A stretch of DNA of 64,000 bases from Candidatus Krumholzibacteriia bacterium (GTDB lineage Bacteria > Krumholzibacteriota > Krumholzibacteriia > JAJRXK01), in contig JBGPIA010000004.1 in assembly GCA_041484665.1 (NCBI GenBank), positions 96,001 to 160,000 on the forward strand, given 5' to 3'. A program made the position numbers and the translations under genes. Below are positions 13,065 through 34,300 of this stretch, in pieces. The stretch's first letter is position 1; each line of letters starts with the position of its first letter. The notes under the pieces were generated by a model, which was not told the origin of the DNA, ran no database searches, and saw nothing but the letters and a program-made list of their open reading frames with translations.

Positions 13065-14354
13065 TCAGCGCCGGTCGGGTGGCCCGCCGGTGTCGGCCAA
13101 CGCGCGGGCGTGGGCCATCACGGTGGTGACCTGCTCGACGACCTGGTTGGCCTCGCCGCCGTCGTCGGCGCCCTCGAGGTCCCTCGACTTCTCCTTCTGG
13201 ACGCGCAGCGCCTCGAAATCGGCGATCTCCGCATCGCTCATCCCGCCCGGCTCCTTCTCGAACACGAAATCCTTGCTCTCGTAGTCCACGGTGACGAGGT
13301 CCCCGCGCACGAGCTGGCCGCTGGAGATCAGGTGGCTGATCGGGGTGACCAGCCGGGCCTCCACGGCACGGCGCAGCGGCCGGGCCCCGAATTGCGGATC
13401 GGTCCCGATTCCGACCAGGGCGTCCTTGGCCGCGTGCTCGACGCGCAGCAGGAAGGGCTCCGCGCAGTCGATGCTGCGGATGTGGATGTTGGCGATCAGG
13501 TTGTCGAGGATCTCGTAGAGGTGGGGCTCCTTGAGCGTATCGTAGACGATCATCTCGTCGAAGCGGTTGAGGAACTCGAAGGGGAACACCTTGCGCGCCT
13601 CGCGCAATGCCGACTCGTGGATGTCCTTGTCCAGGCGCTGCCCCTCGAAACCCCCGTGGAAGCCGATGGAGTGGTGGGCGATGTGCGCTCCCATGGCCTC
13701 GCTGCCCACGTTGGTGGTGAGCACGATGATCGAGCGCGTGAAATCGACTTCCTCGTTATTGCCCAGCACGAGGTTGCCGTCCTCCAGGATGCCCAGCAGC
13801 ATGTTCCAGAGCTTGGGGTGGGCCTTCTCGATCTCGTCGAACAGCACGAGCGACAGGTAGGAGTCCTCCTCGGGGAAGATCTTGTTCACCTTGCCCAGCC
13901 CATCGGCGAACATGCCCAACCCTTCCTGATAGGCCTTCTTGTGATGGCGGTCGAGGTTCTCCTGGCACAAGAGCGGCTTGATCTCGCCGCCCACGTAGCC
14001 CGGGGGGCTGCCCAAGAGCTTGCTCATATTGTAGTGCGCGGAGTACTCCTGGCAGTTGACGCGGGTGTAGGCCTTGCGCGACCCGAACAGCGCCTCGGCT
14101 AGGCAGCGCACGGTCTCGGTCTTCCCCACTCCCGTGGGCCCCAGCAGCATCATGGTAAGCAGCGGTCGCTCGGGATCGCTGATGCCCGCGAGCACGCGGC
14201 TGAATGAGTTCGTGACCGTGTCCAGCGCCGTCGGCTGCCCGATGACCATGCGTTGCATGCGCTCGTGGAAGCGAGCGAGCTGCGGGTTGCGCTTCCCCGG
14301 ATCCAGCCGCAGGCGCTTGGCCGGGCTGCTCGGGCAGGGGGCGGGCTGGGTCAT
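13065..14354 (-). CDS. Stand-alone Clp/Hsp100 ATPase (NBD2 plus small domain only)
   Basis: VIGQ, GPTGVGKT (Walker A), LLGSPPGYVG pore loop, LFDEIEKAHP (Walker B), TTN sensor, SIGF loop, EFLNRFD, GARPLRR. Confidence 0.9.
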   Translation of the reverse strand: MTQPAPCPSSPAKRLRLDPGKRNPQLARFHERMQRMVIGQPTALDTVTNSFSRVLAGISDPERPLLTMMLLGPTGVGKTETVRCLAEALFGSRKAYTRVNCQEYSAHYNMSKLLGSPPGYVGGEIKPLLCQENLDRHHKKAYQEGLGMFADGLGKVNKIFPEEDSYLSLVLFDEIEKAHPKLWNMLLGILEDGNLVLGNNEEVDFTRSIIVLTTNVGSEAMGAHIAHHSIGFHGGFEGQRLDKDIHESALREARKVFPFEFLNRFDEMIVYDTLKEPHLYEILDNLIANIHIRSIDCAEPFLLRVEHAAKDALVGIGTDPQFGARPLRRAVEARLVTPISHLISSGQLVRGDLVTVDYESKDFVFEKEPGGMSDAEIADFEALRVQKEKSRDLEGADDGGEANQVVEQVTTVMAHARALADTGGPPDRR

Positions 14355-14601: not shown

Positions 14602-16443
14602 CTACTGGGGCTCCCAGCCCTCCAAGTACGGCGCGCGAGGACCGCCTGGACGCTCGATCCAGCGGTCGTCGACGGCGGGCGCGATGGGAGAATGCCGTTG
14701 CAAGTAGCGCGTGAGCGCGTCGCGCACGGGCATCATCGTGTACTCGATGCGGTCGGGGGGCACTTGCGCCAGGAAGTCCAGGCCGCTGTTGCCTTCCATC
14801 AGGTAGTCGGTGGTGGCCACCCGATAGATGTGGTCCGGTTGGACCGACAGGCCGCCCACGGTCAGCGCCAACACGCGCTGCCCTGCCGCGGCGTCGGGGT
14901 CGACCACCACGTTCGCGCCGCTCTGGCAGATTCCCGCCGACCCGCGCCCGCTCTTGCGTTCGAGGATCTGGCGCAGCAGCCGGCCGTCCATCTGGACGAC
15001 CACCAGTGCATTGCCGAAGGGCTCCACCCGCAGCATGTCCCCGGAGGTGAGCGGCCCGGCCGGGAGGTCGGTACGCAGTCCTCCGTTGTTGGTGAAGGCG
15101 AAGTCGGCGGAAGCGCCCTCCCGCATGGCGTCCGTGACGAAATTGCCCATCGGGCTGTTGGCGCCACCGCGGCGCGTGAGTTCCACGCGGCTGCGGCCCA
15201 GGCGCACCGACAGACCCGCCGCGACCTTCTGGATGTACGGGCGGAGGCTGTCGGTCATGGCGTGGCTGGGCCACCACTCGTCCTCGAAGAGCGTCACCAG
15301 CACACCGTCGCGCCGCGGGCTCTCGTAGCGCAGCGGGAGCCCCGTCGCGCGATCGATGGTCAGGATCGCGTGGCCCACCGACGAGCCGTTGCCGAACGAC
15401 TCGAAGACCATGGCGTGGGTGACCGGGTCGATCCAGGGCTCGCGGTAGCCGCGGTGGGTGTGTCCGCCCACGACCAAGGGGACGCCCTCGAGCACGTGGA
15501 CCAGGTCCATAGCCCCGCGCACGTCGGCGCGGATGTCCTCGCCGGCGGCAACGCGCTTCTGCAGATTCGCCCATTCTTCCTGCGGGTCGAAGGGCAGCCC
15601 CTCGTGCACCACCAAGACGATGATGTCGGCGTGCTGCTGCTGCTTCAGATCATCGCGGTACTTCTCGATGGCCGGCAGCAGTGCCCCGAAGGCCAGCCCC
15701 TTGATGTTCTCCTCGAACGCCATCTGCGCCGTCCCCGGGGTGACCGCCCCGATGATCCCGATGCGCAGCCCGGCGCGCTCAACGACACGGCAAGGCTCCA
15801 CCCAATCCACCAAGGAGTCGGTCCCCTGCTTGAACAAGTTGCAACAGAGGAACTTCTGGTGCATGCCGTGCGAGATGCGGATGGCCACATCCTTGCCGCG
15901 GTCGAACTCGTGATTGCCGGGAGCGACGGCGTCGTAGCGCATCGTGTTGAAGTAGGTCTCCATCACGCTGCCCTCGGTCAGCGTCCCCACCGGCGCTCCC
16001 TGCCAGACGTCGCCCGCGTCCACGAGCACCATCGCCTCGTCGGGCTTGCCGGCAATCTGCTCGCGCAGCTTCTGGACGTAGGCCATCGCCGAAGCGCCTC
16101 CGCCCAGGGGCGGCGGGAAGTTGGGGTTCATGAAGTTCGCGCCCTCGGGCGCCACGTGGCCGTGGATGTCGTTGGTCCACACCAGGTGGATGCGCGCGAC
16201 GCCCGTGCTGGCCGCGTCGCCCATGGGCGGCGCGACGGCGCAGAGCGCCAGGACCGCTGCCGCCGCGAGTGCGCCGGCGGCACGACGGGCCACTCGACGC
16301 GCGGTCTGGTGGGCGGTGGCGCTCGCAGTGACGCGCGCGCTGACGCGGCCGGCGTGGCGCCGGCCCTCAAGTGCGGCACGAGCGAGCAGATCGGCCGCGC
16401 TAGGCCGTCGCGCTGGGCCGGTCACTGGTCGGAGGAATCGCAT
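14602..16443 (-). CDS. Secreted 5'-nucleotidase / UDP-sugar hydrolase (UshA/CpdB family)
   Basis: TNDIHG, DAGD, GNHEFD, GGHTH metallophosphoesterase motifs; 5'-NT C-domain (NSPMGNFVTDA, NNGGLR, PFGN, TTDYL); signal peptide. Exact start uncertain. Confidence 0.92.
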   Translation of the reverse strand: MRFLRPVTGPARRPSAADLLARAALEGRRHAGRVSARVTASATAHQTARRVARRAAGALAAAAVLALCAVAPPMGDAASTGVARIHLVWTNDIHGHVAPEGANFMNPNFPPPLGGGASAMAYVQKLREQIAGKPDEAMVLVDAGDVWQGAPVGTLTEGSVMETYFNTMRYDAVAPGNHEFDRGKDVAIRISHGMHQKFLCCNLFKQGTDSLVDWVEPCRVVERAGLRIGIIGAVTPGTAQMAFEENIKGLAFGALLPAIEKYRDDLKQQQHADIIVLVVHEGLPFDPQEEWANLQKRVAAGEDIRADVRGAMDLVHVLEGVPLVVGGHTHRGYREPWIDPVTHAMVFESFGNGSSVGHAILTIDRATGLPLRYESPRRDGVLVTLFEDEWWPSHAMTDSLRPYIQKVAAGLSVRLGRSRVELTRRGGANSPMGNFVTDAMREGASADFAFTNNGGLRTDLPAGPLTSGDMLRVEPFGNALVVVQMDGRLLRQILERKSGRGSAGICQSGANVVVDPDAAAGQRVLALTVGGLSVQPDHIYRVATTDYLMEGNSGLDFLAQVPPDRIEYTMMPVRDALTRYLQRHSPIAPAVDDRWIERPGGPRAPYLEGWEPQ

Positions 16444-17852
16444 GCCTGCTCCTGGTGGCCGAGGGCGGTGGACTGGGTGGCGAGCTCGATGCGCACTTCG
16501 TAGCTGCGACCGTCGGTGGCGAAGGTGACGTTGTGCTGGGCGCCGCTGCCGCGGAGGCGGTCGAGCGTGGGCAGGTCGTCGATGGCGTAGACGTGAGCGC
16601 CAATGGCCTGCAGGCGCGCGGTCGCCGCCGACAGCGCGTCCGTCAAATCGCCGTCCCAGACCTGCTGGGTGTTGGGAATGAACGCCACGCGGGGCCGCAG
16701 GGCGTTGATCCACGCTGCGCTGTTGGCGTCGTGCAGGCCGTGGTGCTGGGCCTTGTAGAACTCCACCTCCAGCTGCGCCGCGGGAAAGGCAGCCAGGATG
16801 CTGGCGGTGCTCTGGTCCTCGCAATCGCCGCCCATCATGAAATGGACGTCGCCGTAGGTGAAGCGCAGGACGATCGACTCGTTGTTGATGTCGGTGCCCT
16901 CGTAGCCGGTGAGTCCCACGTCGGGGGCGCGGCTGCTGTTGAGCACCGTGACGTCCACCTGCGGATCGAAGGCCAGCGCGGGGTTGCTGGCCGAAGTGTC
17001 GAAGCGGTACACGACCACGTGGGTTGTGCTGGGGTGGCCTGCCAGGTCGGCCAGGGCCTCGCGGTAGGCGGGCTTGTCGAAGGACTTGGTCGGCGAGTCC
17101 AGAAACACGTCGGGGGGCCGCGAGTCCAGCACCGCGAGGGTGTCCGCCGAGCCGACCATTCCACCGATGTGGTCCAGATGGACGTGGGTCGCGACCATGA
17201 CATCGATCCTGCTGACCCCGTGGGCATCCAGGTACTCGCTCACCGCCCGCGCACCGCTGCGCGGCCCGGCGTCGATCAGTACGTGCTCGCCGCTGGTGGG
17301 CATGGTGAGCAGATGGCTGTCGCCAAAGCCGATGTGGATCATCGTGGCGGTCAGGATTCCCGTCGGCGCCGCGATGGCGGCGGTGAAGGTGTCCACGGAC
17401 GTCGCCGCCACGCTGCCGTTGGTGGCTTCCGAGACCGCCTGCACCCAGACGAGCCGTCCGCGGGTCAGGTCCAACAGCGGCACCGAATGATCGAGCGCGT
17501 ACTGGCGATCGGCCCGCCCGGCCGCCACCGGATACGCCGCGTGATCGAAGCGGCCCACGGCGAATCCGTAGCGCACCCAGCCGCGCGCCGGGACCTCGGT
17601 GCGCCAGCGCACGAGGTTGCCTTGGACCGTGAGGCCGCTGATGCCGATGGGAGCGACCGGACCGTCGCCGCCGCTCTTGCCCGAGCAGCCCAGCTGCGCA
17701 GAGAGCGACAGCAGCAGGATTGCCGCCAGCGCCAGGCGCGCGCCAGCGTGGCAGGCGCCAGCGTGGCAGGCGCCCGCGCCGCGCACGCGGCGGCCTCGCC
17801 GGGTCCGGCCGTGGCCGTGATCGGGACGCGGGCCGTTGGCCCATGCGTACAT
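16422..17852 (-). CDS. ComEC/Rec2-type metallo-beta-lactamase-fold hydrolase (putative nuclease), lipoprotein
   Basis: Lipobox QLGC; FN3-like N-domain; IGFGDS, LIDAG, THVHLDHIGG, INNESIV, GGD, KAQHHG motifs. Confidence 0.85.
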   Translation of the reverse strand: MYAWANGPRPDHGHGRTRRGRRVRGAGACHAGACHAGARLALAAILLLSLSAQLGCSGKSGGDGPVAPIGISGLTVQGNLVRWRTEVPARGWVRYGFAVGRFDHAAYPVAAGRADRQYALDHSVPLLDLTRGRLVWVQAVSEATNGSVAATSVDTFTAAIAAPTGILTATMIHIGFGDSHLLTMPTSGEHVLIDAGPRSGARAVSEYLDAHGVSRIDVMVATHVHLDHIGGMVGSADTLAVLDSRPPDVFLDSPTKSFDKPAYREALADLAGHPSTTHVVVYRFDTSASNPALAFDPQVDVTVLNSSRAPDVGLTGYEGTDINNESIVLRFTYGDVHFMMGGDCEDQSTASILAAFPAAQLEVEFYKAQHHGLHDANSAAWINALRPRVAFIPNTQQVWDGDLTDALSAATARLQAIGAHVYAIDDLPTLDRLRGSGAQHNVTFATDGRSYEVRIELATQSTALGHQEQACDSSDQ

Positions 17853-17881
17853 CGAGAGGTCCCCTCCTGGGAGAGGCTGCG

Positions 17882-19258
17882 CTAGAAGCCGCGCGAGATC
17901 CCGACGACCATGCGGACGACGCTGTCGTCGACCTTGGCATCGTACGCAGGCGCCGGGAAGGTGTCCCCGCCGACGGTGGTGGTCGGGTCGAACAGGATGC
18001 CCAGCGGCTGGCGGCTGGTCTGGCGCTGGAACTGCCCCGTCACGTCCATCATGAAGCCCGCCACCGGCACCCCGAAGCCCGCCGAGAAGATCGACCGGGA
18101 CGACTCGCGATCGCTGTAGTTCTCAAGATAGCGAAACCCGGCCCGCAACGGTGTGCCGTTGTAGAAGATGTGCTCCACGCCCATGCGGACGTCCCAGGTG
18201 TCGCGGAAGTCGGGGGTCGCCGGCAGGCTCACGAGCGCCCGCCGGTAGTTCGTCGCCACCGCCGACCAGAATCGCCGCACCGCCTCTACGGTGAACACCG
18301 TGCGCAGCTCGTTGCGCGGCCGGTAGGCCACTCCCAGGCGCAGCGTGCCCGGGTACTCCAGCTCCACATCGGGGACGCTGGCGTGGGTGACGCTCGTACC
18401 CGAGCTGCGCACGCTGGTCGTGTCGGTGGCCAGCGTACCCTTGACGCTGAAGCGGTGCTCGTAGTCGATGCCCAGGTCCAGGCGGTCATTCACCCGCATC
18501 AGCCCGCCCAGGGAGACCCCCCAGCCGGCCAGGTCGTGCTTCAGGCTCTGGACCGAGTCGGGGGGCGCGTGGAAGCCGGCGATACGGCGATCCTGCTCGA
18601 TGGTCCCGAAGTAGCGGTGGACCGAGAGTCCCACGTGCGCGCCCGCCCCCAGCTCCGCCCCGTAGCCGCCGGTGAGCGAGAGCAGCCGGCCGCGTACCTG
18701 CAGCTGCCGCAGGTCCTGGATGGTGTCGCGGATCTGGGAGAAGGGGCTGGGGTCCCGGAACTCCTCGAAGTAGTCGTAGTCGAAATCGAAACGCTGGAAG
18801 AGGCCCAGGCCCACGGCCATGGCCCGCCGGTGCGGGATGCGGTAGACGACGCCTCCCTGGGCGTCGGTGTAGCTGTGGCTGTTGATCGCGATCGCGCTCT
18901 CGGTCGCGAAGCTCTGGAAACTGTCGTACAGCGGCACGAAGCGGTTCTCGCTCGCGTGCCAGAGGCCCAGCACCAGGTCGGCCCGCACGGTCGAGTCGGT
19001 GAGCGCCAGCGCCGCCGGATTCTGCACCAGGGCGGCACTGCCCTGGAAGACCGCGACGCCGGCCCCCCCCATTGCCCCCGAGCGCGCAGTGAAGCCGTCG
19101 ACGGGCGTCCCGTTGGGCACGTCTAGCAGGGTGGTGCAGCGTGCGGGGGCCGGCAGCAAGGCCGCCGGGACGGCCCAAAGGAGGGCCGACCACAGCACGG
19201 CGCAGCGTTGCGGCGCCGGCCGGATGAGGCAGCAGATTCGCGATGGGACACTCATCAC
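17882..19258 (-). CDS. Outer-membrane beta-barrel, FadL/PorV-like
   Basis: Signal peptide; ARSGAMGGAGVA...NPAAL N-terminal motif; amphipathic strands; C-terminal Phe (GISRGF). Confidence 0.75.
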   Translation of the reverse strand: MMSVPSRICCLIRPAPQRCAVLWSALLWAVPAALLPAPARCTTLLDVPNGTPVDGFTARSGAMGGAGVAVFQGSAALVQNPAALALTDSTVRADLVLGLWHASENRFVPLYDSFQSFATESAIAINSHSYTDAQGGVVYRIPHRRAMAVGLGLFQRFDFDYDYFEEFRDPSPFSQIRDTIQDLRQLQVRGRLLSLTGGYGAELGAGAHVGLSVHRYFGTIEQDRRIAGFHAPPDSVQSLKHDLAGWGVSLGGLMRVNDRLDLGIDYEHRFSVKGTLATDTTSVRSSGTSVTHASVPDVELEYPGTLRLGVAYRPRNELRTVFTVEAVRRFWSAVATNYRRALVSLPATPDFRDTWDVRMGVEHIFYNGTPLRAGFRYLENYSDRESSRSIFSAGFGVPVAGFMMDVTGQFQRQTSRQPLGILFDPTTTVGGDTFPAPAYDAKVDDSVVRMVVGISRGF

Positions 19259-19266
19259 GGACTCCC

Positions 19267-21909
19267 CTAGAAGGTGTAATCCAGCTGGAGGCGGAAGGCG
19301 GTGCTCTCGCGGCGGGCATTGTCGCCGTCGATGGGCGAGCCGGACGGATCGTTGAAGCTGCGGATATCGACGTTGGTCTGCGTCAGCCGGCGGTCGTTGG
19401 TGACCTTGAAACGCAACAGCAGCGAGTCGCTCAAGCGGCTGCGCAGCAGGATCCAGTTGCGGAAGCCCTTGCCGTCCACCACCACGAACTCGTTGTCCTC
19501 GAAGTTGAACAGGAACCCATCGTACATCTCGGTGCTGATGGCCACCGTCAGCCCATCGTTCACATTGTGGGTGAGCAGGGCCTGGACCGCCTGCCCGGGG
19601 CTCGCGGCCTGGGCCAGCGGGTTGTTCTGGCTGATCTGGGCCGCTTGCGACAGGCGCGCGCGCGGCGCGAACTGCGTGTTCGTGGAGCTGTAGAGCAGGC
19701 CCAGCTCGTCATAGTCGCTGAGGCGCAGCCGCATCTCCAGGCGGGTGTCCCAGCTCTTGAACTTGCGAAAGTCCTCAGTGCCCATCTCGCTGCGGCTGGA
19801 GAAGCGCTCGCGCAGGCGGAAGCGTACCGGGAAGATGGGTGCGTACTCCAGGCGCGCGGTCCAGCGCCGCTGGTCCTGCTCGTCGGCCACCCGCTTCCAC
19901 TGGTCGTACTCCAGGCCGGAGATGGTGAGCTTGCGCGAGACGCGGTAGCGCGTGGAGAGGAAAAGCCCGCGCTCTGGCTTCATCTGGGGTGTGTCCAGCT
20001 CCAGCCAGGTCAGCACGGGGTTCTGCAGGCGGAAGGGATCGGTGAGCAGCGTCTGCTCGTAGCGCGTGTCGTTGGAGAAGGAGCGGGCGTACGGGTTGTC
20101 GAAGCCCAGGTCGATGGAGCGATACAGCGCCTGGAGCGTGAGATCCTCGTACTGCACCCAGCCGTTGAGCACGAAGGCGTCGGGGGCGGCGCTGAACAGG
20201 CCCTGCAGCCCGCTGTCGGGGCTGCTGTCCAGCTTGGCGTACTCCCCCTGCAGCGCGGCGTTGGCGTAGACGGTCTGGAATTCCGCGCCCACCACGCGGC
20301 GGAACTTGCCCAGGCGCCGGCTGTCGTAGTCGGCGAACAGCTCGCTGTCACGGCTGTCGAGCAGATCGCGGTTGGCGGGAGCGATGAGCGAGTTCACGTC
20401 GGGATTGAAGTGCTTGTCGTAGCGCGCCTCGTACCCGCTGACACCCACGTAGCTCCCGTTGGTGAGCTGCAGCTTGAGGTTGCCGCCATAGACCGTCTCG
20501 TGGAATGCGTCGCGCCGCAGCAGCAGGGGCGTCCCCTCGGCGGTCTGCAGGCCGGCCAGCTCCTCCTCGGTGAGGCGCGGGAGCATGACCACGTACTTGT
20601 TGACCGTGCCGTCGGGATTGAGCAGGCCGTCCTTGTGCCCGTTGCTGTAGAAAGCGACGCCGTGCAAAGGCCCGGCCGAGCCCTCCGCAGCGATTCCCTG
20701 GAGGGCGAACTCGTGGGAGCGGGACAGGTCGCCCAAGAGCGTCTGCGGTCGCTTGTTGAATCCGGTTCCCGTCTTGCGCGGCAGGAAGTAGTCGGTGTTG
20801 TCCATCACCAGGCCCTGCCCGAAGGCGATGCGGTAGTTGCCGACGACCAGGTTCTCCAGCGCCAGCTTGCCGTTCATCTGCGGCTTCCACGAGACGTAGC
20901 CTTTCGCGGTCTCGTTGAGGTGCTCCTCGCCCACGTTGCGGAAGGTCATCAGACCGCCCTTGAGCTCGTTGCCCAGGCGCAGGCGAAGCTTCGTCAGCAG
21001 ACCCGGGTTGGCGTTGTCCAACCCCCGCACGCCCCAAGCGGTGGCGTGCTCGAAGTCCAGGGGGTCAACCCCGGGCTGGGGCTCCACCAGCAGATCCGCG
21101 TCGTCGAGCGTGTAGGGCGTGTCGAAGTACAGAAGCTGCGCGTCACCGCGCAACTCGTCTGCCTTGCGCTGGGGGGGCTGGTAGGTGACGAAGTCGCGCA
21201 GATTGCGGAAGGCGAAGTAGCTGAGCCCGTCGGCGCCGCGCAGCTGGCGCTCGTTCTCGATGCGGCCCGCCAGCTTGCGCGCCTTCAGGATCGCCACGGC
21301 GTCCACCGGCGAGACGTTCTGGAAGGTCTGCAGCTCGTAGAGATTGAGCGTGTTGACATCCTGGGGATCGCGCAGCTGGTCGAGGTACTCCTCGGCCAGC
21401 TCCTCGCTCGCCCCCTCCTGGGCGAGGAACTGCTGGACCTGCCGGAAGCTCGCGTCGTAGCGCTGGAGCGCCTCGTCCTTTGGATCGGGCGGCAGCGTCG
21501 CCACCAGCGGCCACAGCTTGGCCAACAGCTCGGTGGTCACGCCCTCCACCTCGAGCAGGTCCTGCATCGAGCGGAAGAAGCGCACGTACGTGCGGTAGGA
21601 CCAGAGGTTCTGCGCAACCAGCGCCGGCACGGGCAGCTGCTGCAGCTCCTCGAGGGTGGCCCGGTTGACGTCCAGGCGCCCGCGCAGCAGCGCCGCGTTG
21701 GGCTGCTGCGCGCCCACGCGCGGCGAGATCTCGGTGCGCCGCTGCGTCTCCTCCGGCGACTGGGCCCATGCCGGCGCTGCGCGGGCCAGCATGGCCCCGG
21801 TCACTGCGGCGATCAGCGCGGCGGCTCGCACGGCGGCCGGCAGCGTGGCTCGCAGCCCGACCGGCCGCGCGGTCGCGACCGCGGCGCGGATCGCCCCGCG
21901 CACGCTCAC
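19267..21909 (-). CDS. Outer-membrane barrel protein with two N-terminal ComEA-like helix-hairpin-helix modules
   Basis: LDVNRATLEELQQLP...FRSMQDLLEVEGV and DVNTLNLYELQTF...IENERQL..DGL; VGNYRIAFGQGLV; C-terminal FRLQLDYTF. Confidence 0.85.
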   Translation of the reverse strand: MSVRGAIRAAVATARPVGLRATLPAAVRAAALIAAVTGAMLARAAPAWAQSPEETQRRTEISPRVGAQQPNAALLRGRLDVNRATLEELQQLPVPALVAQNLWSYRTYVRFFRSMQDLLEVEGVTTELLAKLWPLVATLPPDPKDEALQRYDASFRQVQQFLAQEGASEELAEEYLDQLRDPQDVNTLNLYELQTFQNVSPVDAVAILKARKLAGRIENERQLRGADGLSYFAFRNLRDFVTYQPPQRKADELRGDAQLLYFDTPYTLDDADLLVEPQPGVDPLDFEHATAWGVRGLDNANPGLLTKLRLRLGNELKGGLMTFRNVGEEHLNETAKGYVSWKPQMNGKLALENLVVGNYRIAFGQGLVMDNTDYFLPRKTGTGFNKRPQTLLGDLSRSHEFALQGIAAEGSAGPLHGVAFYSNGHKDGLLNPDGTVNKYVVMLPRLTEEELAGLQTAEGTPLLLRRDAFHETVYGGNLKLQLTNGSYVGVSGYEARYDKHFNPDVNSLIAPANRDLLDSRDSELFADYDSRRLGKFRRVVGAEFQTVYANAALQGEYAKLDSSPDSGLQGLFSAAPDAFVLNGWVQYEDLTLQALYRSIDLGFDNPYARSFSNDTRYEQTLLTDPFRLQNPVLTWLELDTPQMKPERGLFLSTRYRVSRKLTISGLEYDQWKRVADEQDQRRWTARLEYAPIFPVRFRLRERFSSRSEMGTEDFRKFKSWDTRLEMRLRLSDYDELGLLYSSTNTQFAPRARLSQAAQISQNNPLAQAASPGQAVQALLTHNVNDGLTVAISTEMYDGFLFNFEDNEFVVVDGKGFRNWILLRSRLSDSLLLRFKVTNDRRLTQTNVDIRSFNDPSGSPIDGDNARRESTAFRLQLDYTF

Positions 21910-22841
21910 GGCGCCTCCTCACCCGTGGGCTTGGGGCCCAAGCGCAGGCTCAGGCCCACCTGGTGGCTGCTGTCCAGCACGCCGCCTCCGGTGGAGAAGC
22001 CGTAGTCGAGGGTGACTACCGGCAGATGGATAGCGAAGCCGCCGGTGAGCTTGTTGGGGTCGGTCTCGATCCCCGCTCGCAGGGACAATGCGCTGGTAAT
22101 CCCCATCTCGAGGCCGCCGTGGAAGCGGAAGTCCTGCCCCATCTGTCCGCGCAGGTCGAAGGTCGTGAGCACGTCTTCGTAGGGCTCGTAGCACAGACCC
22201 ACGGCGATCTGCTGGCGCAGCTCCTCGTCGTCCTCGCCGATGGTCGGGTTGTTGAGATTGCGGGTCAGGAAGCCCACGCGCGTACGGTCGTAGACCGTCA
22301 CCATGGCGCCGATGTCCAGGCCCATCGCCCAGTCGCTGCCCGGATCGATGCCCCCGACCGACTGCGCAAATTCCAGGTTGTAGAAGTTGAGCGTCCAGCC
22401 CACCTGCGCCGAGGTGGAGGCGTCACGGAACAGCCGAAAGCCATGCGAGAGCGAGAACGTCTGCTCGGTGGTCAGGCGCACCTCGTCGCCGCCCGCGCCG
22501 TACTTGACGCCGAACCAGCGGTAGCCGAAGGCCACGCCGCCGGCATTACCCGGCAGGCGGGTGGCGGCGCCAAAGGACGTCAGGCGGTTGAAGGCAGTCC
22601 CGTTGGGCTGGACGGTGGCCGTGGCGACCGAGGGCTGCGCGAGCCTGGGCAGACCGGCGGGATTGTAGTAGAAGTCCCACGCGTCATCGGCCACGGCCGT
22701 GCTGGCCTCCCCCATGGCCCGGGCGCGGGGGCTGACGGCCAGGTCTTCGAACGCCGCGCGCGCCCCCGCTGGCAGCAGTAGCGCGCCCGAGACGGTGGCG
22801 GCCAGCAGCAACGCAATTTGACAACGACCCTGTTGCATCAC
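21906..22841 (-). CDS. PorV/PorP(SprF)-like outer-membrane barrel
   Basis: Signal peptide; SPRARAMGEA.TA.ADD...YYNPAGL; GLDIG; LSLRAG; LDYGF..SHQVGLSL. The start may be ATG 22838. Confidence 0.75.
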   Translation of the reverse strand: MMQQGRCQIALLLAATVSGALLLPAGARAAFEDLAVSPRARAMGEASTAVADDAWDFYYNPAGLPRLAQPSVATATVQPNGTAFNRLTSFGAATRLPGNAGGVAFGYRWFGVKYGAGGDEVRLTTEQTFSLSHGFRLFRDASTSAQVGWTLNFYNLEFAQSVGGIDPGSDWAMGLDIGAMVTVYDRTRVGFLTRNLNNPTIGEDDEELRQQIAVGLCYEPYEDVLTTFDLRGQMGQDFRFHGGLEMGITSALSLRAGIETDPNKLTGGFAIHLPVVTLDYGFSTGGGVLDSSHQVGLSLRLGPKPTGEEAP

Positions 22842-22851
22842 CGAGAGCCTC

Positions 22852-25800
22852 CTAGCGTTGCAGCCGCGTGGCGACGACCACCGGCATCTGCATCGTCTGG
22901 ATCCTGCCCGTCGTCCGGTCGCTCACCAGCAGGTGGACCACGTAGGCGCCGGCCTCCACGATCTGCACCGTGTCGTCGCGGCCATCCCAGCTCACCGTGG
23001 CGCGGTTGTTGGTGAAGACGGCCGAAGGGTCGCTGAATCGGCTGTCGTAGAGCGTCTTGCGCAAACGGCCGGTGAGATCGAAGACGCGCAGCAAGACATC
23101 GGATCCCCGCTGCACGACCGTCGCGGGAACGGTGAAGGTGATCGGGTACGCTTCGCCCTCTCGCGGCAGGAATGTCTTGGGCGGGCCGACCAGCGTCACG
23201 AAGTCGATGAGCCCCTCCTCCACCGGGCGCACCACGCCGGGGGCTGCGATGGCGTTGCCCGTCGGGTCCGCCACGCCCGCCACGCGCACCGACCAGCCCT
23301 GCGCGACGGCCAGTTCGGCGGCCAGGCCCAGCACGACTTGGGTCGCGTCCTGACCCGCGCGGGCCGACTGGACCGCCACCGTCTCCGTAGGGACCTGGGT
23401 GCGGTAGACCGTGTAGTGCGCCACGTCCGCGATGGTGGCCGGATCGAGCGCCTCGTTGAACTTCAAGGTGAGCTCGGTTCGCCCCGTGAGGCTGGCGCGC
23501 AGCAGGGTCGGCGGAATGTCGTCGGGCGGCGGCTGATCGGTGATCTCCTCGCGCACACCCACGAGCACCTGGAAATCGCTCTGGAACTGGCTGCCCGCGC
23601 CCGAGGCCCAGATGGTGTTGCCGACGTTGAAGGCCGCTGCGCCCAGCGCGGTGACGACGCGCACGACGATGGGCCCGCTGCCGTCATTGACCGTGTAGTT
23701 GCTCGCCTCGTTGGCAGCGCCGGGGTTGGTGACGCTCTTGGCTACGATCTGCCCGGTGACGCGGATGTAGGTGCCCTCCCACGCGTGGCTCGCGGCGGTG
23801 CCGGTGCTCAGCGGCGTCGGCTTGAGCGGCGTGTTGCCGCCGCTGACCAGCGTCACCTCCGTAATGCCGGTGATCTCGATGGTGGTGAAAAAGGTGTCGA
23901 CCGTCCCCTTCACCAGCACGATGTTTCCTCGGTCCCGCAGGAGCGGGCTGCCGGCCGAGCTGCCGAACAGGTTGACTCCGCGACCCGAGTCATCCTGGAT
24001 GTATCCGGAGGTGGTCGACCCCCGATAGTTGTTCGGGATGTAGACCTGACCCTGGATTGTGACGGCCTGCCCCTTGTAGGTGTGCAGATTGTTGTGGATC
24101 GCAGCGATCGGGATGGCCCCCGACGCCGTGTGCGTGAAGGTGGCCGTGTCGCCGGACCCGGCCACGATGGCATTACCGGCCAGGTCCTGTAGGCCGTGCA
24201 CGCGCACCGTGTAGCCGACGTTCTCGGCGAGGCTGCCGCCCAGGGTCAGAGTGACGCTGATCCCGGATCCGAGGCTGGCCGCGCTCACCGGCACGGTGCT
24301 CGTCGGCTGAACCGTGCGGAAGACCTCGTAATTGGCGGCCAGGTTGGCGGTGGCGCCGGTCACGGCCTCGCTGAAACTCACCAGCACCTGCGAAGCGCTG
24401 GACGCCGCGGCGCTGGTCACAGTTGGGGGCGTGGTGTCGCCGCCGCTGGTGGTCTCGGCGATGTCGCCCACGACCCCCACCAAGACCTGGAAGTCGGTCT
24501 GGAACTGGGCGCCCGCGCCGGCTGCCCGGATCGTCTGTCCGACGTTGAATGCAGGCGCGCCCAGGGCGGTCACCACCCGCACGAGGACGTTTCCGCTGCC
24601 GTCGTTGACCGTATAGTTCGTCGCCTCGTTCGCGGCTCCCGGATTGGTGACGGCCTTGGCCGTGATGGGACCGGTGACGTTGATGTAGGTCCCTTCGTAG
24701 CTCGTGCTGCGCGCGGCTCCCGTGCTCAGGGCCAGGGGCGTCAACGGCACGTTGCCGCCGCTGACCAGCGAGATCTGCGTGAGCGTGACGACCTCGATCG
24801 TCGTGAAGAACGTGTCGACGGTCCCTGTCACCAGCACCACGTTGCCGCGGTTCTGCAGCTGCGGATCGTTGCTCGTGCTGCCGAACAGATTGATCCCCCG
24901 CCCCGAGCCGTCCTGGATGTAGCCCGAGTAGGTCGTGCTGCCGCGATAGTTGCTCGGAATGTAGACCTGCCCCTGGATCGTGACGACCTGCCCCTTGTAG
25001 GTGCGCAGGTTATTCTGGATCGTGGCGATGGGGATGGCGTTGCTAGGTGTGTACGTGAAGGTGGCGCTGTCCCCGGCGCCCGCGGCGACGGCGTTGCCGG
25101 CGAGGTCCTGCACGTTGCTGACACGCACGGTGTGGCCGACGCCAGCCGGGAGCGCGCTGCCCAGGGTCAGGGTCGCAGTGAGCCCGTCCCCCGAAAGGCT
25201 CGCCGCGGTGACCGTCACGGTGTTCGCTGGCGTGGCGGTCTGGAAGACCTGGTAGTTGGCCGCCACCTGGCCCGTGGCAAGCGTGACCGCCTCGCTGAAG
25301 TGCACGACCGCCTGCGTCGCGCTGCTGGCCGAGGCGCTCGTCACGGTCGGAGGCGTGGTGTCCCCCCCGCTCGCCAGGGCGATGTCAAAAGAGTTCCCCA
25401 CCAGGATCTGGTAGTCGGTCTGGAACTGCGCGCCCGCGCCGGCCGCCCGGATCGTCTGTCCGACGTTGAACGCCGGCGCACCGAGCGCGGTGACCACGCG
25501 CACCACGATGTTTCCACTCCCGTCGCTCACCGTGTAGTTGGTCGCCTCGTTCGCAGCGCCCGGGTTGGTGACCGCCTTGGCGCTGATGGTCCCGGACACC
25601 TGGATGTAGGTCCCCTCGTAGCTGTGGCTGGCTGCGGCGCCGGTGCCCAGTTGCACGGGCGTCAACGGTGCGTTCCCCCCGCTGACCAGCGAGATCTGCG
25701 TCAGCGTGACGACCTCGATCGTCGTGAAGAACGTGTCGACGGTCCCTGTCACCAGCACCACGTTGCCGCGGTTCTGCAGCTGCGGATCGTTGGTCGTGCT

Positions 25801-26385
25801 GCCGAACAGATTGATCCCCCGCCCCGAGCCATCCTGGATGTAGCCCGAGTAGGTCGTGCCGCCGCGATAGTTGCTCGGAATGTAGACCTGGCCCTGGATC
25901 GTGACGACCTGCCCCTTGTAGGTGCGCAGATTGTTCTGGATCGTGGCGATCGGGGTGGCGCTCGGTCCGCTGCTGAGCGTGAAGGTCACCGTGCTGCCGG
26001 CCGCGATGGGGTTGCCCTGCAGGTCCTCCACGTTCTGCACGCGCACGGTGTAGCCCGTGCTGCTGGCCAGGTCGCTGCCCAGCGTGAGCGTGGCCACGGC
26101 TGCGTTCACCGAGGCGGCGCTCACCACGACCGTGCTGGCCGGGGTCGCAGTCTCGAAGATCTGGTAGTTCGAGGCAGTACCGCCCGTGAATGGGTCGACC
26201 GACTTGGAGAACGTCACCCGCACGGTGCGCGCGTCGGGCGCCGTGGCGCTCACCAGCGCGGGTGCCTGCGCCCAGACCGCCGGGGGGTCGGCCACCAAGA
26301 GCGCCACGGCGCACAGCAGCAGGAGAGCGGAGAGCGGGCGGGCGATCCGGGGAAACCCGTGGGAGAGAGCACGACGGCTGCGCAA
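22852..26385 (-). CDS. Secreted multidomain protein: 4 Ig-like domains, 3 pairs of OB-fold-like domains, C-terminal FlgD/T9SS-like sorting domain
   Basis: TTG start with AAGGAG RBS; signal peptide ending AVWA-Q; three ~306-aa modules (PIATIQ..GQVVTIQG...YIQDGSGRGINLF...GNVVLVTGTV / YEGTYI.V.G.I...YTVNDGSG..VVRV); CTD LRVFDLTGRLRKTL...WDGRDD...GAYVV. Confidence 0.8.
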   Translation of the reverse strand: MRSRRALSHGFPRIARPLSALLLLCAVALLVADPPAVWAQAPALVSATAPDARTVRVTFSKSVDPFTGGTASNYQIFETATPASTVVVSAASVNAAVATLTLGSDLASSTGYTVRVQNVEDLQGNPIAAGSTVTFTLSSGPSATPIATIQNNLRTYKGQVVTIQGQVYIPSNYRGGTTYSGYIQDGSGRGINLFGSTTNDPQLQNRGNVVLVTGTVDTFFTTIEVVTLTQISLVSGGNAPLTPVQLGTGAAASHSYEGTYIQVSGTISAKAVTNPGAANEATNYTVSDGSGNIVVRVVTALGAPAFNVGQTIRAAGAGAQFQTDYQILVGNSFDIALASGGDTTPPTVTSASASSATQAVVHFSEAVTLATGQVAANYQVFQTATPANTVTVTAASLSGDGLTATLTLGSALPAGVGHTVRVSNVQDLAGNAVAAGAGDSATFTYTPSNAIPIATIQNNLRTYKGQVVTIQGQVYIPSNYRGSTTYSGYIQDGSGRGINLFGSTSNDPQLQNRGNVVLVTGTVDTFFTTIEVVTLTQISLVSGGNVPLTPLALSTGAARSTSYEGTYINVTGPITAKAVTNPGAANEATNYTVNDGSGNVLVRVVTALGAPAFNVGQTIRAAGAGAQFQTDFQVLVGVVGDIAETTSGGDTTPPTVTSAAASSASQVLVSFSEAVTGATANLAANYEVFRTVQPTSTVPVSAASLGSGISVTLTLGGSLAENVGYTVRVHGLQDLAGNAIVAGSGDTATFTHTASGAIPIAAIHNNLHTYKGQAVTIQGQVYIPNNYRGSTTSGYIQDDSGRGVNLFGSSAGSPLLRDRGNIVLVKGTVDTFFTTIEITGITEVTLVSGGNTPLKPTPLSTGTAASHAWEGTYIRVTGQIVAKSVTNPGAANEASNYTVNDGSGPIVVRVVTALGAAAFNVGNTIWASGAGSQFQSDFQVLVGVREEITDQPPPDDIPPTLLRASLTGRTELTLKFNEALDPATIADVAHYTVYRTQVPTETVAVQSARAGQDATQVVLGLAAELAVAQGWSVRVAGVADPTGNAIAAPGVVRPVEEGLIDFVTLVGPPKTFLPREGEAYPITFTVPATVVQRGSDVLLRVFDLTGRLRKTLYDSRFSDPSAVFTNNRATVSWDGRDDTVQIVEAGAYVVHLLVSDRTTGRIQTMQMPVVVATRLQR
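23560..25960. repeat. Three intragenic tandem modules, period 918-921 bp
   Basis: 25681-25950 and 24760-25029 differ at about 7 of 270 positions by hand comparison; a third, more diverged copy lies near 23840-24110. Confidence 0.9.
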
Positions 26386-26509
26386 GAGACCGGCTCCTTG
26401 CCCCGGACCGGCGCGGCCGGCTCGCGGGGATCGGGGTGGGGGCTGGATTCGTCGCGCTGGCGGGCCCGCACGACGGCATCCCGGCAACCGCGCCGGAAGC
26501 GGAAGGGGA

Positions 26510-26538
26510 ACCATAGCACCCGGGCGCAGACCCGTGAA
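26510..26538 (-). promoter_or_regulatory. Candidate sigma70 promoter heading the six-gene operon
   Basis: Minus strand TTCACG-N17-TATGGT with an extended TGn (TGCTATGGT). Confidence 0.45.
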
Positions 26539-26654
26539 GCCCCTCCCGCACGCCGCAGGGAAGGAAGCGGAGGGGTGGAAATCAAGAAAAAGAGGGGCGT
26601 CGCGCGTGCAATGCGTCATGCCGCCCTGGCGAGGCCGGGGCGGCGCGCCTGCGA

Positions 26655-27137
26655 TTAGAAGTGCTTCGCCTCTTCGGCCATCAGGGCGTCGAGGATCCGG
26701 GCGGGCGTCGTCGCGCACCGGACCGCTTTCAAGAACGACTCCATGCGGGCCAGGCGCGAGATGCGCGCGAGCACGCGCAACTGCTGACCGGGCTGGTCCT
26801 TCTGGCCGGCCAACAGGAAGACCAGGTCGACCGGCTCGCCGTCGACGGCGTTGAAGGGGATGGGGCGGGTCAGGCGCGCGATCACCACCAAGCTGCCCAC
26901 GACCGCCTCACTGCGGGCGTGCGGGATGGCGATCCCTCCGCCGATCCCCGTGCTCTCCACCCGCTCGCGAGCGAGCAGGTCGGCCAGCAGCCGCTCCCCA
27001 TCCACGACCTTGCCCAATTCGACCAGACGTCCCACCAGGGAGCGGAGGCACTCCTCGCTGGTTGCGACCGACAGATCGGCGATGACCGTCTCCGGCGACA
27101 CGTAGTTGATGAGCTTCATCGTAGTCTCGTCCGCCAT
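26655..27137 (-). CDS. Second PTS IIA-like (Ntr/Fru family) protein
   Basis: RERVESTGIGGGIAIPHARS; FNAVDGEPVDLVFLL; LARISRL. Start is 27137 or 27119. Confidence 0.88.
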   Translation of the reverse strand: MADETTMKLINYVSPETVIADLSVATSEECLRSLVGRLVELGKVVDGERLLADLLARERVESTGIGGGIAIPHARSEAVVGSLVVIARLTRPIPFNAVDGEPVDLVFLLAGQKDQPGQQLRVLARISRLARMESFLKAVRCATTPARILDALMAEEAKHF

Positions 27138-31465: not shown

Positions 31466-34111
31466 CTACTGCACCATCGTGACGGCGCGCGCGCGCACGC
31501 TGCCAGCCGCTTCCAGGCGCACCTGGTAGACCCCGCTCCCCAGGCGCGAGCCCGCATCGTCCCGGCCGTCGAACACGGTGCTGAACGCCCCAGCCGGCCG
31601 CCGTTCGTGCAGCAGCGTCCGTACACGCCGGCCGCGCGCGTCGAATACCGACAGATCCACAGCCCCGGCCGCGGGCAGCGTGAATGGGATGAGCGTGGCG
31701 GGGTTGAACGGATTGGGGACGTTGGCCGCAAGCGTCAGGCGTGCCGGGGCCGAGGTTGCATCGCTGACGGCGACCTCCCCGAGCCACTGTTCGGGCGACT
31801 GCGGGGTGGCGCCCAGCATGCGGTAGGTGCGCCGCCCGGCCAGGGGTGTGGGGTCGAAGACGGCCCCCTCACCCTGCGCCGCGGGCAGCGCCTGCACCAG
31901 CGCGTAGTCGCCCTGGCCGTCGCGGCGCTGCAGCAGCAGCTGCGTGAGCGTCCCCGCCTCGGGCAGGCGCCACTGCACCCTCACGCCGCCGGGCTGCGGC
32001 CGCGCTGAGAAGTCGAGGAGCGTGACCGCCGGGACCAGGCAGTTCCCGACCGCCCGCTGAGCATCGAGCTTGCCGTAGCCCCACGCCACATTGGGCGTGG
32101 CGCCGGTCTGCGCGTCGGTCTGCCCCCCGCACTCGAGGTACTGCTTCGCCAGCGCGGCGTTCATGTTGGGGAAGCGCTCGAGCATCAGCGCCACCGTGCC
32201 GGCGACGTGGGGGCCGGCCTGGCTGGTCCCCTGCAGCAGCCAGTGTTGCCCGTCGGGCTCCACCAGCGGGTCGATCTGCGGCGAGCGCGTGACGGCCGAC
32301 GAGAGGCTGGAGATGATCCCCTGCCCGGGGGCGGCGATCTCGGGCTTGAGGACGCCGTCCCGCCGCGGGCCATTGGAAGAGAAGGTCGACAGCGCTCCCA
32401 GGGTGGGCAGCGGGTTGTACTGGTAGTTGTTCCCGTCGATGGACGACCACGTGCGCTTGGACACGTAGCTCGCGACGGCGATGACCTTGGACGCGGTCGC
32501 GGGCGAGCCGACCACGCCCAGCGCGTCCCGTCCGGCCGTGAAGCTCGCCTCCCCGGAGCCAGCGATGGTGTCGAGGTAGATCCAGGCGTCCACCTGCTCG
32601 GTGGCTCCGCCCGCGGTCGCGACGAACGTGAAGGTCCAGTTCCCGGCCCGCGGCGGCTGCGCCGCCACGGAATCGTAGATGCGGATCGTGATGCTGCGCA
32701 TCCCGTTGGGCTGCACTCCACCCACGCCGTTGAGGATTTCGATCCGTCCGTCGGCCGTGAGATTGGCCGTCGAGGATGTACCCTTCACCACCGGTCCGAC
32801 CGCGATGCTATTCGGGCTGAGCACGCTGACCCGCACGCTGGCCTGGTCGCGCGCCCAGGCGTTGATCTCCAGATCGTCGTTGCCTGCGCCGCCCTGTGGC
32901 GTATACGCGGCGACGTTCGCGACGAGGCTGACGCCGCTGCCGGCCGCATTGCCCTTGGCGTGGATCGCGGCGGCGCCCTCATTGCCGGCCGATGCCACGA
33001 TCACGCGCCCCGGGCCCACCAGGGCGTCGAGAGCCACTTCCAGGCTGCCGGTGCCGTCGTGCGGCCCGAACTGGCTGCCGAGGCTGAGATTGACGACCGC
33101 GGGGAGAGCGAGCGAGGTAGCCTGTTGGAATACGTAGCGCACGCCATCGAGGATCCCCGTGTCGGACAGGTTGGTCTTCACGGCGACGATCGTCGCTTCC
33201 GGCGCAACCCCGATGAAGCGGTACGCGGGCCTCGAGTTGCCGGTTGCGCGGCCCGAGCCGGCGGCGATCCCCGTCACGTGGGTGCCGTGTCCGTCGGTGT
33301 CCATCAGGCGCGCCGTGCCCGCGGAAAGCTGCGCGGAGGTCCAGCCCGTTCCATAGGCAAAGCCAGACGGCGGCCCCGGGGACGCACCGAAGTCCATCTG
33401 GTCCCAGGCGGCGTAGAGGCGGTCGTTGCCCAGGCCGTCGCGGAAGTCCTGGTGGCCGGGGTCGACGCCGCTATCGACCACTCCGACCACGACACCCTGG
33501 CCGCTGAGTCCGGCGTACACGGGCGGAGTGCCGCTGGCGTTATGGACGAGGTCGGCCTTCAGCGCGGGCCCGCTGACGTCAAGATGCAGCACGTTGCGCC
33601 CGGCCCCCTCCAGGTGGCGGACGCCCGCGATAAAGAGCAGCGCGGGCACCCGCTCGAGGGGCAGGTGGATGGCGGTGATCCAGGGGCCGCGGCCGGGGGT
33701 GTCGGTGGCGACCCGCGCTCCGATCCGGGCGCCGAGGGCCTCGAGCGCCGCGGGGAGCACGTCGCCTTCCACCAGCAGGCCGGCGGTGTGGCCCCCGTCG
33801 AAGGTGGCCACACTCGCCACTGACGGCAGCGGCGCACCCTGCTGCACGCCTGCCTGCTGCGGCGCTTCGCGCGCGGCGGCCTGGAGGTAGCCCAGGATGG
33901 TAGCCACCCGATCGTCGTAGCTGCAGCCGCCGGCGCTCGAGACCGGTGCCGGCAGCGCGGCGATTGCGGCCAGGAACAGCCAGGCGCCCGTCAGCAGTCG
34001 CGCGGTCGCCAAGCTCGCCGCCCGCCTGCCTGGGGCTGCGGCGCCGGGCCAAAGGACGGCGGGCCGACCAGGCGTTGGTGTGCCGCGCTGGACGCGGGTG
34101 GAGCGGAACAT
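31466..34111 (-). CDS. Secreted S8 subtilisin-like serine protease with an inserted jelly-roll region and FlgD-like CTD
   Basis: VDSG, HGTHVTG, SAGN, GTSQAGPHVAG; C-terminal NVPNPFNP...VFDARGRRVRTL...FDGRDD...SGVY. Confidence 0.92.
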   Translation of the reverse strand: MFRSTRVQRGTPTPGRPAVLWPGAAAPGRRAASLATARLLTGAWLFLAAIAALPAPVSSAGGCSYDDRVATILGYLQAAAREAPQQAGVQQGAPLPSVASVATFDGGHTAGLLVEGDVLPAALEALGARIGARVATDTPGRGPWITAIHLPLERVPALLFIAGVRHLEGAGRNVLHLDVSGPALKADLVHNASGTPPVYAGLSGQGVVVGVVDSGVDPGHQDFRDGLGNDRLYAAWDQMDFGASPGPPSGFAYGTGWTSAQLSAGTARLMDTDGHGTHVTGIAAGSGRATGNSRPAYRFIGVAPEATIVAVKTNLSDTGILDGVRYVFQQATSLALPAVVNLSLGSQFGPHDGTGSLEVALDALVGPGRVIVASAGNEGAAAIHAKGNAAGSGVSLVANVAAYTPQGGAGNDDLEINAWARDQASVRVSVLSPNSIAVGPVVKGTSSTANLTADGRIEILNGVGGVQPNGMRSITIRIYDSVAAQPPRAGNWTFTFVATAGGATEQVDAWIYLDTIAGSGEASFTAGRDALGVVGSPATASKVIAVASYVSKRTWSSIDGNNYQYNPLPTLGALSTFSSNGPRRDGVLKPEIAAPGQGIISSLSSAVTRSPQIDPLVEPDGQHWLLQGTSQAGPHVAGTVALMLERFPNMNAALAKQYLECGGQTDAQTGATPNVAWGYGKLDAQRAVGNCLVPAVTLLDFSARPQPGGVRVQWRLPEAGTLTQLLLQRRDGQGDYALVQALPAAQGEGAVFDPTPLAGRRTYRMLGATPQSPEQWLGEVAVSDATSAPARLTLAANVPNPFNPATLIPFTLPAAGAVDLSVFDARGRRVRTLLHERRPAGAFSTVFDGRDDAGSRLGSGVYQVRLEAAGSVRARAVTMVQ

Positions 34112-34174
34112 GGCGGTCTCCTCGCAGGGGGTGGGGCCGCCCGCGCGACCCGGTGGACCCGGCGACGGTGCAAG

Positions 34175-34209
34175 AAAAAAGCCGGACCCTCCCGCCTGGG
34201 GGGTCCGGC
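34175..34209 (-). terminator. Rho-independent terminator closing the Rieske/cytochrome operon
   Basis: Minus strand GCCGGACCC...GGGTCCGGC followed by TTTTTT. Confidence 0.8.
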
Positions 34210-34300
34210 AACTCTTCAACTGCGCGGCCTCGCGGTCAAGGCCGCCGCGCGCTGCGCAGCTGCCCGTGTCCGCCGGCCAGCCGGGGACCGCATGGGCCCG

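Follow-up and report, generated by a model that had tools for sequence, protein, structure and literature searches.

Extracellular DNA is a major pool of phosphorus and nitrogen for which few users or mechanisms are known (PMC8289736). It is known to cross the outer membrane by way of the pilus secretin or of TonB-dependent barrels of the DdbC type. The present analysis concerns a six-gene operon at positions 14602-26385 (all six open reading frames, ORFs, on the minus strand) of the window, that is, the whole stretch of 64,000 nucleotides analysed, from Candidatus Krumholzibacteriia bacterium. The locus is real, conserved and undescribed in the searched literature, and its candidate channel belongs to an unstudied family. 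We consider it just probable that the operon serves the TonB-independent scavenging, across the outer membrane, of short DNA or RNA fragments or nucleotides as food, with its 5'-nucleotidase as the sink.

The DNA-utilisation locus ddbABCDEF of Bacteroides thetaiotaomicron (PMC12478041) is likewise a six-gene envelope locus, with secreted nucleases, an outer-membrane transporter and a DUF5689/p202-HIN-like binder, DdbD, for which the p202 HIN structure 4jbm is cited; here a single nuclease is predicted (gene 5), which is optional. DdbC, however, is annotated as TonB-dependent, whereas gene 3 encodes a predicted 24-strand barrel carrying helix-hairpin-helix (HhH) modules; and the present locus has a tail resembling that of type IX secretion system (T9SS) cargo, a PorV-like partner and a 5'-nucleotidase as the constant enzyme. 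No TonB-receptor or plug match (Pfam, NCBIfam) was found in any of the six proteins, the fold matches to TonB-dependent transporters were generic, and no DdbC-type anchor was recognised. Since the proposed purpose and a putative DUF5689-like binder are shared and the transporter is different, the operon would be ddb-like in function, a functional analogue with a different channel, and not a ddb locus. An earlier note on this DNA knew of no characterised system with this architecture: no description of it was found in the literature searched (mostly without subscription papers), yet a tested functional analogue does exist in ddbABCDEF.

Homologues of DdbC and DdbD and an HhH protein are essential for transformation of Riemerella anatipestifer (PMC8459023). 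With these proteins (RA0C_RS04915/04920/02645) the operon shares an outer-membrane barrel, a putatively DUF5689-type protein, an HhH protein and the idea of pilus independence; compared by description, however, the Riemerella HhH protein is separate and predicted periplasmic, and its barrel is DdbC-like. The ComEA-PilQ-ComEC route (PMC3879209, PMC12455585) has counterparts in the (HhH)2 fold of gene 3 and the ComEC-type domain of gene 5, but the DNA-binding hairpin features are not kept here and the metallo-beta-lactamase (MBL) domain lies in a free lipoprotein without a channel. T9SS cargo is often linked to cognate shuttle barrels (PMC12618676), and here too a C-terminal-domain protein is genetically tied to a small barrel. 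In contrast to the type B C-terminal domains with PorP/SprF, the tail is FlgD/PorU-like, the barrel is PorV-like below the cut-off, and the two genes are linked to a third one, for a large barrel (gene 3). BamG, a FadL-family barrel that docks a lipoprotein on BamA (PMC12611786), resembles gene 4 in partnering a larger barrel, although gene 4 scores far below the BamG cut-off and its partner is not BamA. Single Krumholzibacteriota and Eisenbacteria metagenome-assembled genomes with several predicted secreted nucleases have also been described (PMC11495043), and a further paper served for comparison (PMC11532111).

The presumed promoter region and the six genes are as follows:

26386-26654, minus strand: presumed promoter region (candidate only), 269-bp intergenic, behind a same-strand gene
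22852-26385, minus strand: gene 1, exported cargo, 1177 aa from a plausible TTG start
21906-22841, minus strand: gene 2, small PorV-like barrel, 311 aa
19267-21909, minus strand: gene 3, core candidate channel (large HhH barrel), 880 aa
17882-19258, minus strand: gene 4, FadL/TodX/BamG-like barrel, 458 aa
16422-17852, minus strand: gene 5, optional lipoprotein with a ComEC/Pce-type MBL domain, 476 aa
14602-16443, minus strand: gene 6, UshA-family 5'-nucleotidase, 613 aa from the ATG at 16443

The co-oriented ORFs and the gaps of 10, -4, 8, 29 and -22 bp between genes 1 to 6, as the earlier note gave them, are exact, and the operon lies 269 bp from the upstream gene and 247 bp from the downstream one. 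The starts of genes 1, 3, 5 and 6 are plausible, and the residue numbers of gene 3 used below count from nucleotide 21831. Third-position G+C content (GC3) of the coding part is 0.82-0.98, except for 0.72 over the first 150 bp of gene 6. Signal peptides were assigned by eye, with no predictor. The domain calls previously made for the six products were borne out by Pfam, structure and motif results. The single candidate promoter fared less well, the scan returning 0 sigma-70-like sites in 26300-26720; the terminator scan at the operon was blank.

Gene 3 was matched in 22 of 61 relatives (one of them HhH-only) and in 75 of the 155 genomes of the phylum, where it is confined to 3 of 9 families. 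Its surroundings were counted, wherever the flank sufficed, in close loci (the best 80 of 193 genome loci, from records mostly titled Krumholzibacteriota, some Eisenbacteria, with other labels) and in distant loci (the best 80 of 479 confirmed stretches of metagenome, which form 21 groups at 60% identity); the ORF caller was crude, which may account for some missed genes. In the close loci gene 2 (75/75), the tail of gene 1 (71/71), gene 4 adjoining gene 3 (68/68) and gene 6 (56/56) were invariably found, while gene 5 occurred in 12/56. The order, where it could be judged, was cargo tail, small barrel, HhH barrel, FadL-like barrel and nucleotidase. Flanking AAA (48/53) and Mrp (39/49) genes are also kept, so part of the close-locus pattern is plain synteny. 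In contrast, neither AAA nor Mrp occurs in the distant loci (0/80), where gene 4 adjoins gene 3 in 64/66, gene 6 is found in 50/51, gene 2 in 35/62 and adjacent tail-bearing cargo in 20/52; the core thus persists outside its chromosomal context.

By these co-occurrence counts the arrangement is beyond chance, and the genes do co-occur across phyla, as the earlier note required. The idea of a six-gene system has to be narrowed: since the MBL gene is present in 12/56 close loci, and genes 1-2 are missing from 25/52 distant loci, where genes 3, 4 and 6 persist, the core comes down to these three genes, from which genes 1-2 can be detached together. Distant full-length homologues of gene 3 fall in clusters naming Edwardsbacteria and WOR-3 (20 clusters were looked up, of which 4 bore a taxon name). 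The AAA gene downstream was considered as a core member and rejected on its counts; in the window (13065-14354, minus strand) it is a single-module, ClpB-D2-like AAA+ gene.

The product of gene 3 joins two HhH modules (HHH_3 twice by Pfam; (HhH)2 modules at nt ~21678-21502 and ~21363-21184) to a barrel at nt ~21153-19273. The barrel is predicted to have 24 strands, by our own count of long strands in the AF2 model (pLDDT 86.8, pTM 0.83, 106 rows). No close solved relative of it was listed (Foldseek TMq <=0.32), a new fold being unproven, and its VIA matches are generic barrels (Z <=15.2 at a root-mean-square deviation, rmsd, of 5-6). Conserved residues assigned to the lumen, by strand parity and not from coordinates, are 24 basic and 12 acidic, clustered on strands 14-18. 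The highest conservation is found in two long loops (335-376 and 574-619), in which acidic and basic residues are mixed. In the atlas, the barrel's look-alikes come chiefly from HhH-domain clusters of Bacteroidota and Fidelibacterota (0.95; to be taken as no more than a lead).

Unusual forms of gene 3 were also encountered. One genome holds three copies (G045: C5, C90, C117), two others carry frameshifted copies (G006:C5; L115) that may be assembly errors, and one protein (P0198) is a 1251-aa fusion of TPR repeats with a full gene-3 homologue. Split or short forms (16 matches) were set aside as mostly fragments.

Gene 1 encodes, in this order, a signal peptide, three Big_5-OB-OB units (OB pairs at residues 143-336, 450-643 and 757-949), a further Big_5 (four by Pfam) and a T9SS-like C-terminal domain (residues ~1060-1177, nt 23208-22852). 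This tail aligns with PorU 1054-1158 (Z 11.3, rmsd 2.9, 104 aligned; VIA), which is also its top Foldseek match, and together with the signal peptide (by eye) it marks the protein as probable T9SS cargo; about 35 weak tail paralogues are encoded in the genome. The repeats, earlier proposed to be OB folds, are predicted as such: the AF2 model of residues 750-1177 (pLDDT 94.1) contains two. OB2 matches the AspRS anticodon domain (Z 12.6, rmsd 2.5, 88 aligned; VIA) and OB1 AsnRS (Z 11.2; VIA), among matches dominated by nucleic-acid binders (tRNA-synthetase anticodon domains, PolC, RPA, Stn1 and Teb1, at Z ~11-12.6 and rmsd 2-3). The tandem aligns with p202 HIN 4jbm (Z 10.0, rmsd 6.2, 162 aligned; VIA) and, at rmsd 19.4, with p204 HIN (Z 10.4; VIA). 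When the OB pair was searched by sequence against PDB, no useful match emerged. A profile of OB-A, the first repeat, fits the first half of the DUF5689 domain in 6/6 fetched DUF5689 loci (iE 5e-10 to 2e-6), and an atlas lead (0.93; DUF5689 on 13% of members) also links the two, suggesting that the repeats are related to DUF5689.

The genome further encodes a stand-alone paralogue of gene 1 (L127:7677-10691) made up of an OB pair, Big_5, LTD and tail. That relatives without the locus rely on a ddb-type system in its place found no support: in their family f6 DUF5689 occurs in 11/11 genomes and gene 3 in 0/11. The neighbour of the DUF5689 gene in the 4 fetched f6 loci is a Wzi-like barrel, not a DdbC-type receptor, and the 3 of these DUF5689 proteins that were scanned are all DUF5689-PLD-tail fusions. 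Proteins of DUF5689-FN3-2xPLD-tail layout (L211:8694-11126, L212-L216; 5/6 scanned) are candidate secreted nucleases; in all five scanned, DUF5689 passes its Pfam cut-off and is accompanied by two PLD domains and the tail.

The small barrel of gene 2 matches NF033709 PorV_fam (E 2e-12) below the cut-off, and its family profile matches PorV 6h3i_F (E 2.7e-8). Among the distant loci, tail-bearing cargo lies upstream in 20 of the 27 with gene 2 and in none of the 25 without it, the latter stemming from 2 groups only. Gene 2 is thus likely a dedicated shuttle or anchor for gene 1. SprA_N is found over the cut-off in the genome, as are 8 of its 17 PorV-family matches; GldN gave no match in the genome, but the search controls were silent too. 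Gene 4 belongs to the FadL family by its Toluene_X match (36.1 bits, over the curated cut-off), and it alone of the otherwise weak PorV, FadL and BamG matches of the two barrels passes such a cut-off; gene 4 further matches BamG (E 3.5e-14, score 52.7 against a cut-off of 250) and TodX (E 3e-10). Gene 4 is likely a docking partner of gene 3, not a DNA pore. By analogy with the published barrels, both small barrels may act as anchors.

Gene 5 has the ComEC domains 9ic4 and 30bt as its best solved matches (E 1.5e-17), which upholds the earlier view that its MBL domain is nearest to the ComEC nuclease domain. The motifs DxG, HxHxDH, NN-S, GD and HHG align with those of ComEC (HVHLDH at 223, HHG at 370). 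A lipobox pattern occurs in 12/12 gene-5 relatives, and gene 5 has no match to the channel domain (PF03772, Competence), the full ComEC lying on another contig. The ComEC beta-lactamase-like domain acts both as endonuclease and as exonuclease, with the help of an OB fold (PMC12455585). Gene 5 is likely, by its sequence, a nuclease or another phosphodiesterase. Gene 6 is an UshA-family enzyme with Metallophos and 5_nucleotid_C (Pfam), strong matches to 3ivd (E 2.7e-53) and UshA (~2e-27), and metal ligands intact (DIHG, DAGD, GNHE, GGHTH). Near its N-terminus it bears a hydrophobic FMNPNFPP loop that is specific to the locus, being present in 57/59 close and 56/62 distant homologues (the other six distant ones have a near variant) and absent from the genome's other nucleotidase; this loop may dock the enzyme.

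Genes adjoining the distant loci point to nutrition over transformation, in line with the nutrient role proposed earlier. In 7/80 distant loci the place of gene 5, between genes 4 and 6, is taken by a PLD-like gene; an ABC binding protein with permeases accompanies 9/80; a DHH phosphoesterase gene is found in 12/80, same-strand and downstream in 9 of them; a nucleoside phosphorylase gene in 5/80 (and 2/80 close loci); and an MBL-plus-tail protein in 1/80. Upstream of one close locus lie genes for an amidohydrolase, a uridine kinase and a nucleoside phosphorylase, and downstream of another, on the opposite strand, an EEP-family gene. Among the 49 of 131 candidate neighbours that were scanned there are also many without such a relation, for example peptidases, trigger factor and pyruvate phosphate dikinase.

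In seven loci (L148, L150-L155) the PLD-like gene precedes a nucleotidase of half length whose metal motifs have decayed; 4 of these loci have an ABC importer downstream. In another (L166:14534-17575) a restriction-modification cassette of methylases and a BsaWI-like endonuclease lies between genes 4 and 6. A downstream second cargo with a metal-binding HxH start, presumably PHP-like, plus the tail was seen at L131:15352-16695 and in 11 similar matches; after it, some loci carry another PorV-like barrel and then a DHH gene.

From these observed parts, their synteny and conserved core, and the modelled folds, the following route may be proposed, in which we infer the substrate, the direction, complex formation and the localisation of gene 5. 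Gene 1 would leave the cell through an SprA-type translocon and be held on the surface by the gene 2 barrel, where its OB pairs would bind fragments. These would pass through the gene 3 barrel of 24 strands, following a wall lined with arginines, with the conserved long loops as gate and gene 4 as structural partner of gene 3, as BamG is for BamA. An exchangeable phosphodiesterase, the MBL protein here and a PLD-like one in other lineages, would cut the oligomers, and phosphate would be removed from the products by the nucleotidase, whose conserved loop probably docks it. By keeping the gradient inward this enzyme would provide a metabolic sink in place of a ComEA ratchet. Nucleosides and phosphate would finally enter by inner-membrane transporters, in some lineages the ABC importer. 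Several non-homologous partners share a nucleic-acid theme, which supports scavenging of this kind; among them are the OB or LTD repeats of gene 1, since OB and LTD are both accessory domains in the nuclease Xds (PMC6746945). Nutrient scavenging is favoured here over a wider phosphoester diet, ComEA-style import and envelope assembly or export.

Several results weigh against a nucleic-acid substrate or blur the picture of its capture. Because the genomes are related, the counts overstate independence, and the lumen lining depends on the parity assignment, while conserved acidic loop residues could neutralise the arginine wall. There is no direct PF18942 (DUF5689) match in this genome, so the link between the OB repeats and DUF5689 is transitive. 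With mean charges of -3.9 and -3.1 the repeats are acidic overall, and they have conserved aromatics; they occur in 9/59 close loci only (11 of 77 gene-1 sequences have OB pairs, the window's included) and count among their structural matches YgiW (Z 10.7), which is not known to bind nucleic acid. The scanned non-OB variants of gene 1 carry LTD, often with CBM_56 or PKD, on the same tail. In the nuclease Xds, LTD was dispensable (PMC6746945). The surface DNA 'net' imagined in the earlier note is accordingly weakened, its repeats being acidic and replaced by LTD in most relatives. As for the enzymes, half-length nucleotidases with decayed metal motifs keep the loop or a near variant in 7 distant loci, and the MBL, PLD, DHH and UshA families also act on non-nucleic phosphoesters.

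These results bear on the best-placed rival, which we consider unlikely: general scavenging of phosphoesters (glycerophosphodiesters, phosphocholine, sugar nucleotides, NAD or cyclic nucleotides), with gene 1 as an adhesin or carbohydrate-binding protein. The acidic repeats and the CBM_56 and PKD domains would suit it, as would the HxHxDH motif found in 12/12 gene-5 relatives, in which a His replaces D600 of the ComEC motif HxDxDH, and the adjoining ABC binding proteins, which are SBP_bac_1/8, a family that includes sugar and glycerol-phosphate binders. The phosphocholine esterase Pce is moreover the closest structural homologue of the ComEC domain (PMC12455585). However, gene 5 itself is much nearer to the ComEC domains, Pce not being listed at E <=0.01 in its structure-sequence search. 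Also, the structural matches of the OB folds, the DUF5689 link and the adjacent nucleoside phosphorylase and uridine kinase genes speak for nucleic acids, and a 24-strand barrel is large for small solutes.

A ComEA-type ratchet, whether for food or, in a transformation variant, for recombination, is still less probable; in it the fused HhH modules would draw long double-stranded DNA through gene 3. Module 1 does superpose on ComEA 8dss (Z 10.4, rmsd 1.2, 64 aligned), so that gene 3 has a ComEA-like (HhH)2 fold, and the Riemerella proteins offer a precedent. Neither module, however, has the GIG hairpin and basic patch of ComEA (G60, K62 and K63 in Vibrio cholerae). Module 1 reads LPIPxEVA, with a one-residue hairpin deletion, and its mean charge is -3.6 over 106 close rows (never positive) and -3.0 over 45 distant rows, against +7 for the genome's stand-alone ComEA. 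Module 2 (NVSPVDA) is highly conserved and mildly basic (mean charge +1.3 close, +2.0 distant), with near-invariant arginines, but has Asp in 106/106 rows at the position aligned to K63, and K63E in V. cholerae ComEA abolishes transformation (PMC3879209). The stand-alone ComEA has canonical hairpins and T-L instead of the lysine pair, so the K63 test of module 2 is not absolute, and some other mode of phosphate binding would still be open to this module. Two tethered modules would also be unable to accumulate along DNA like free ComEA, the nucleotidase is the constant partner, and the genome has ComEC, ComEA, DprA and two secretins at other sites. The ComEA-type DNA-binding ratchet of the earlier note thus loses ground, and the HhH modules have apparently been repurposed away from canonical DNA binding.

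The locus was also considered, and rejected, as a replacement for the pilus/ComEC route, both routes being near-universal in the relatives: ComEC and a secretin are found in 59/61 each, independently of the presence of the locus. A single ComEC query gave no match in the 160 loci. The stand-alone ComEA adjoins ORFs (L129:3497-8153) resembling what we take to be pilB, pilT and pilC.

It is very improbable that genes 3 and 4 form a channel for assembly or export, be it a translocon reserved for surface proteins or a way out for nucleotides or DNA, with the nucleotidase recycling a by-product. In favour of such envelope machinery, the 24-strand ushers FimD and PapC (Z ~13) are among the size-matched fold neighbours of gene 3, which also weakly matches the HhH of type II secretion GspK; gene 4 resembles BamG; and a second trio of cargo, small barrel and HhH barrel occurs in the genome without a nucleotidase. 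Against it, the 25 loci that keep genes 3, 4 and 6 without genes 1-2 imply that gene 3 does not serve gene 1 as its own translocon, the genome has SprA, the locus is patchy, unlike essential biogenesis machinery, and import-type accessory genes adjoin it.

This second trio (L128:4851-9159, minus strand) encodes a protein with two LTD and a FlgD-type tail, a likely small barrel and a 549-aa protein of HhH and a likely barrel. The last aligns with gene 3 in its HhH part alone, and a comparison of the two barrels did not show homology.

Beyond nutrient scavenging, it is a tentative possibility that gene 3 is the first of a family of nucleic-acid channels not yet described, built of 24 strands and independent of TonB and pili. 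It would work within a hydrolysis-driven 'utilisome', composed of gene 3, its FadL-like partner, a T9SS-displayed OB or LTD collector and a loop-docked periplasmic nucleotidase. If so, a third channel family would be added in uncultured phyla to the two known outer-membrane routes, and Krumholzibacteriota, Eisenbacteria, Edwardsbacteria, WOR-3 and other uncultured lineages would be recyclers of phosphorus from extracellular DNA and RNA. The gene could then serve as a marker for nucleic-acid foragers in metagenomes, and the barrel as a new large pore for structural work.

Elsewhere in the window (31466-34219, plus strand) a 917-aa subtilisin-like protein, its motifs recognised by eye, ends in a C-terminal tail similar to that of gene 1.

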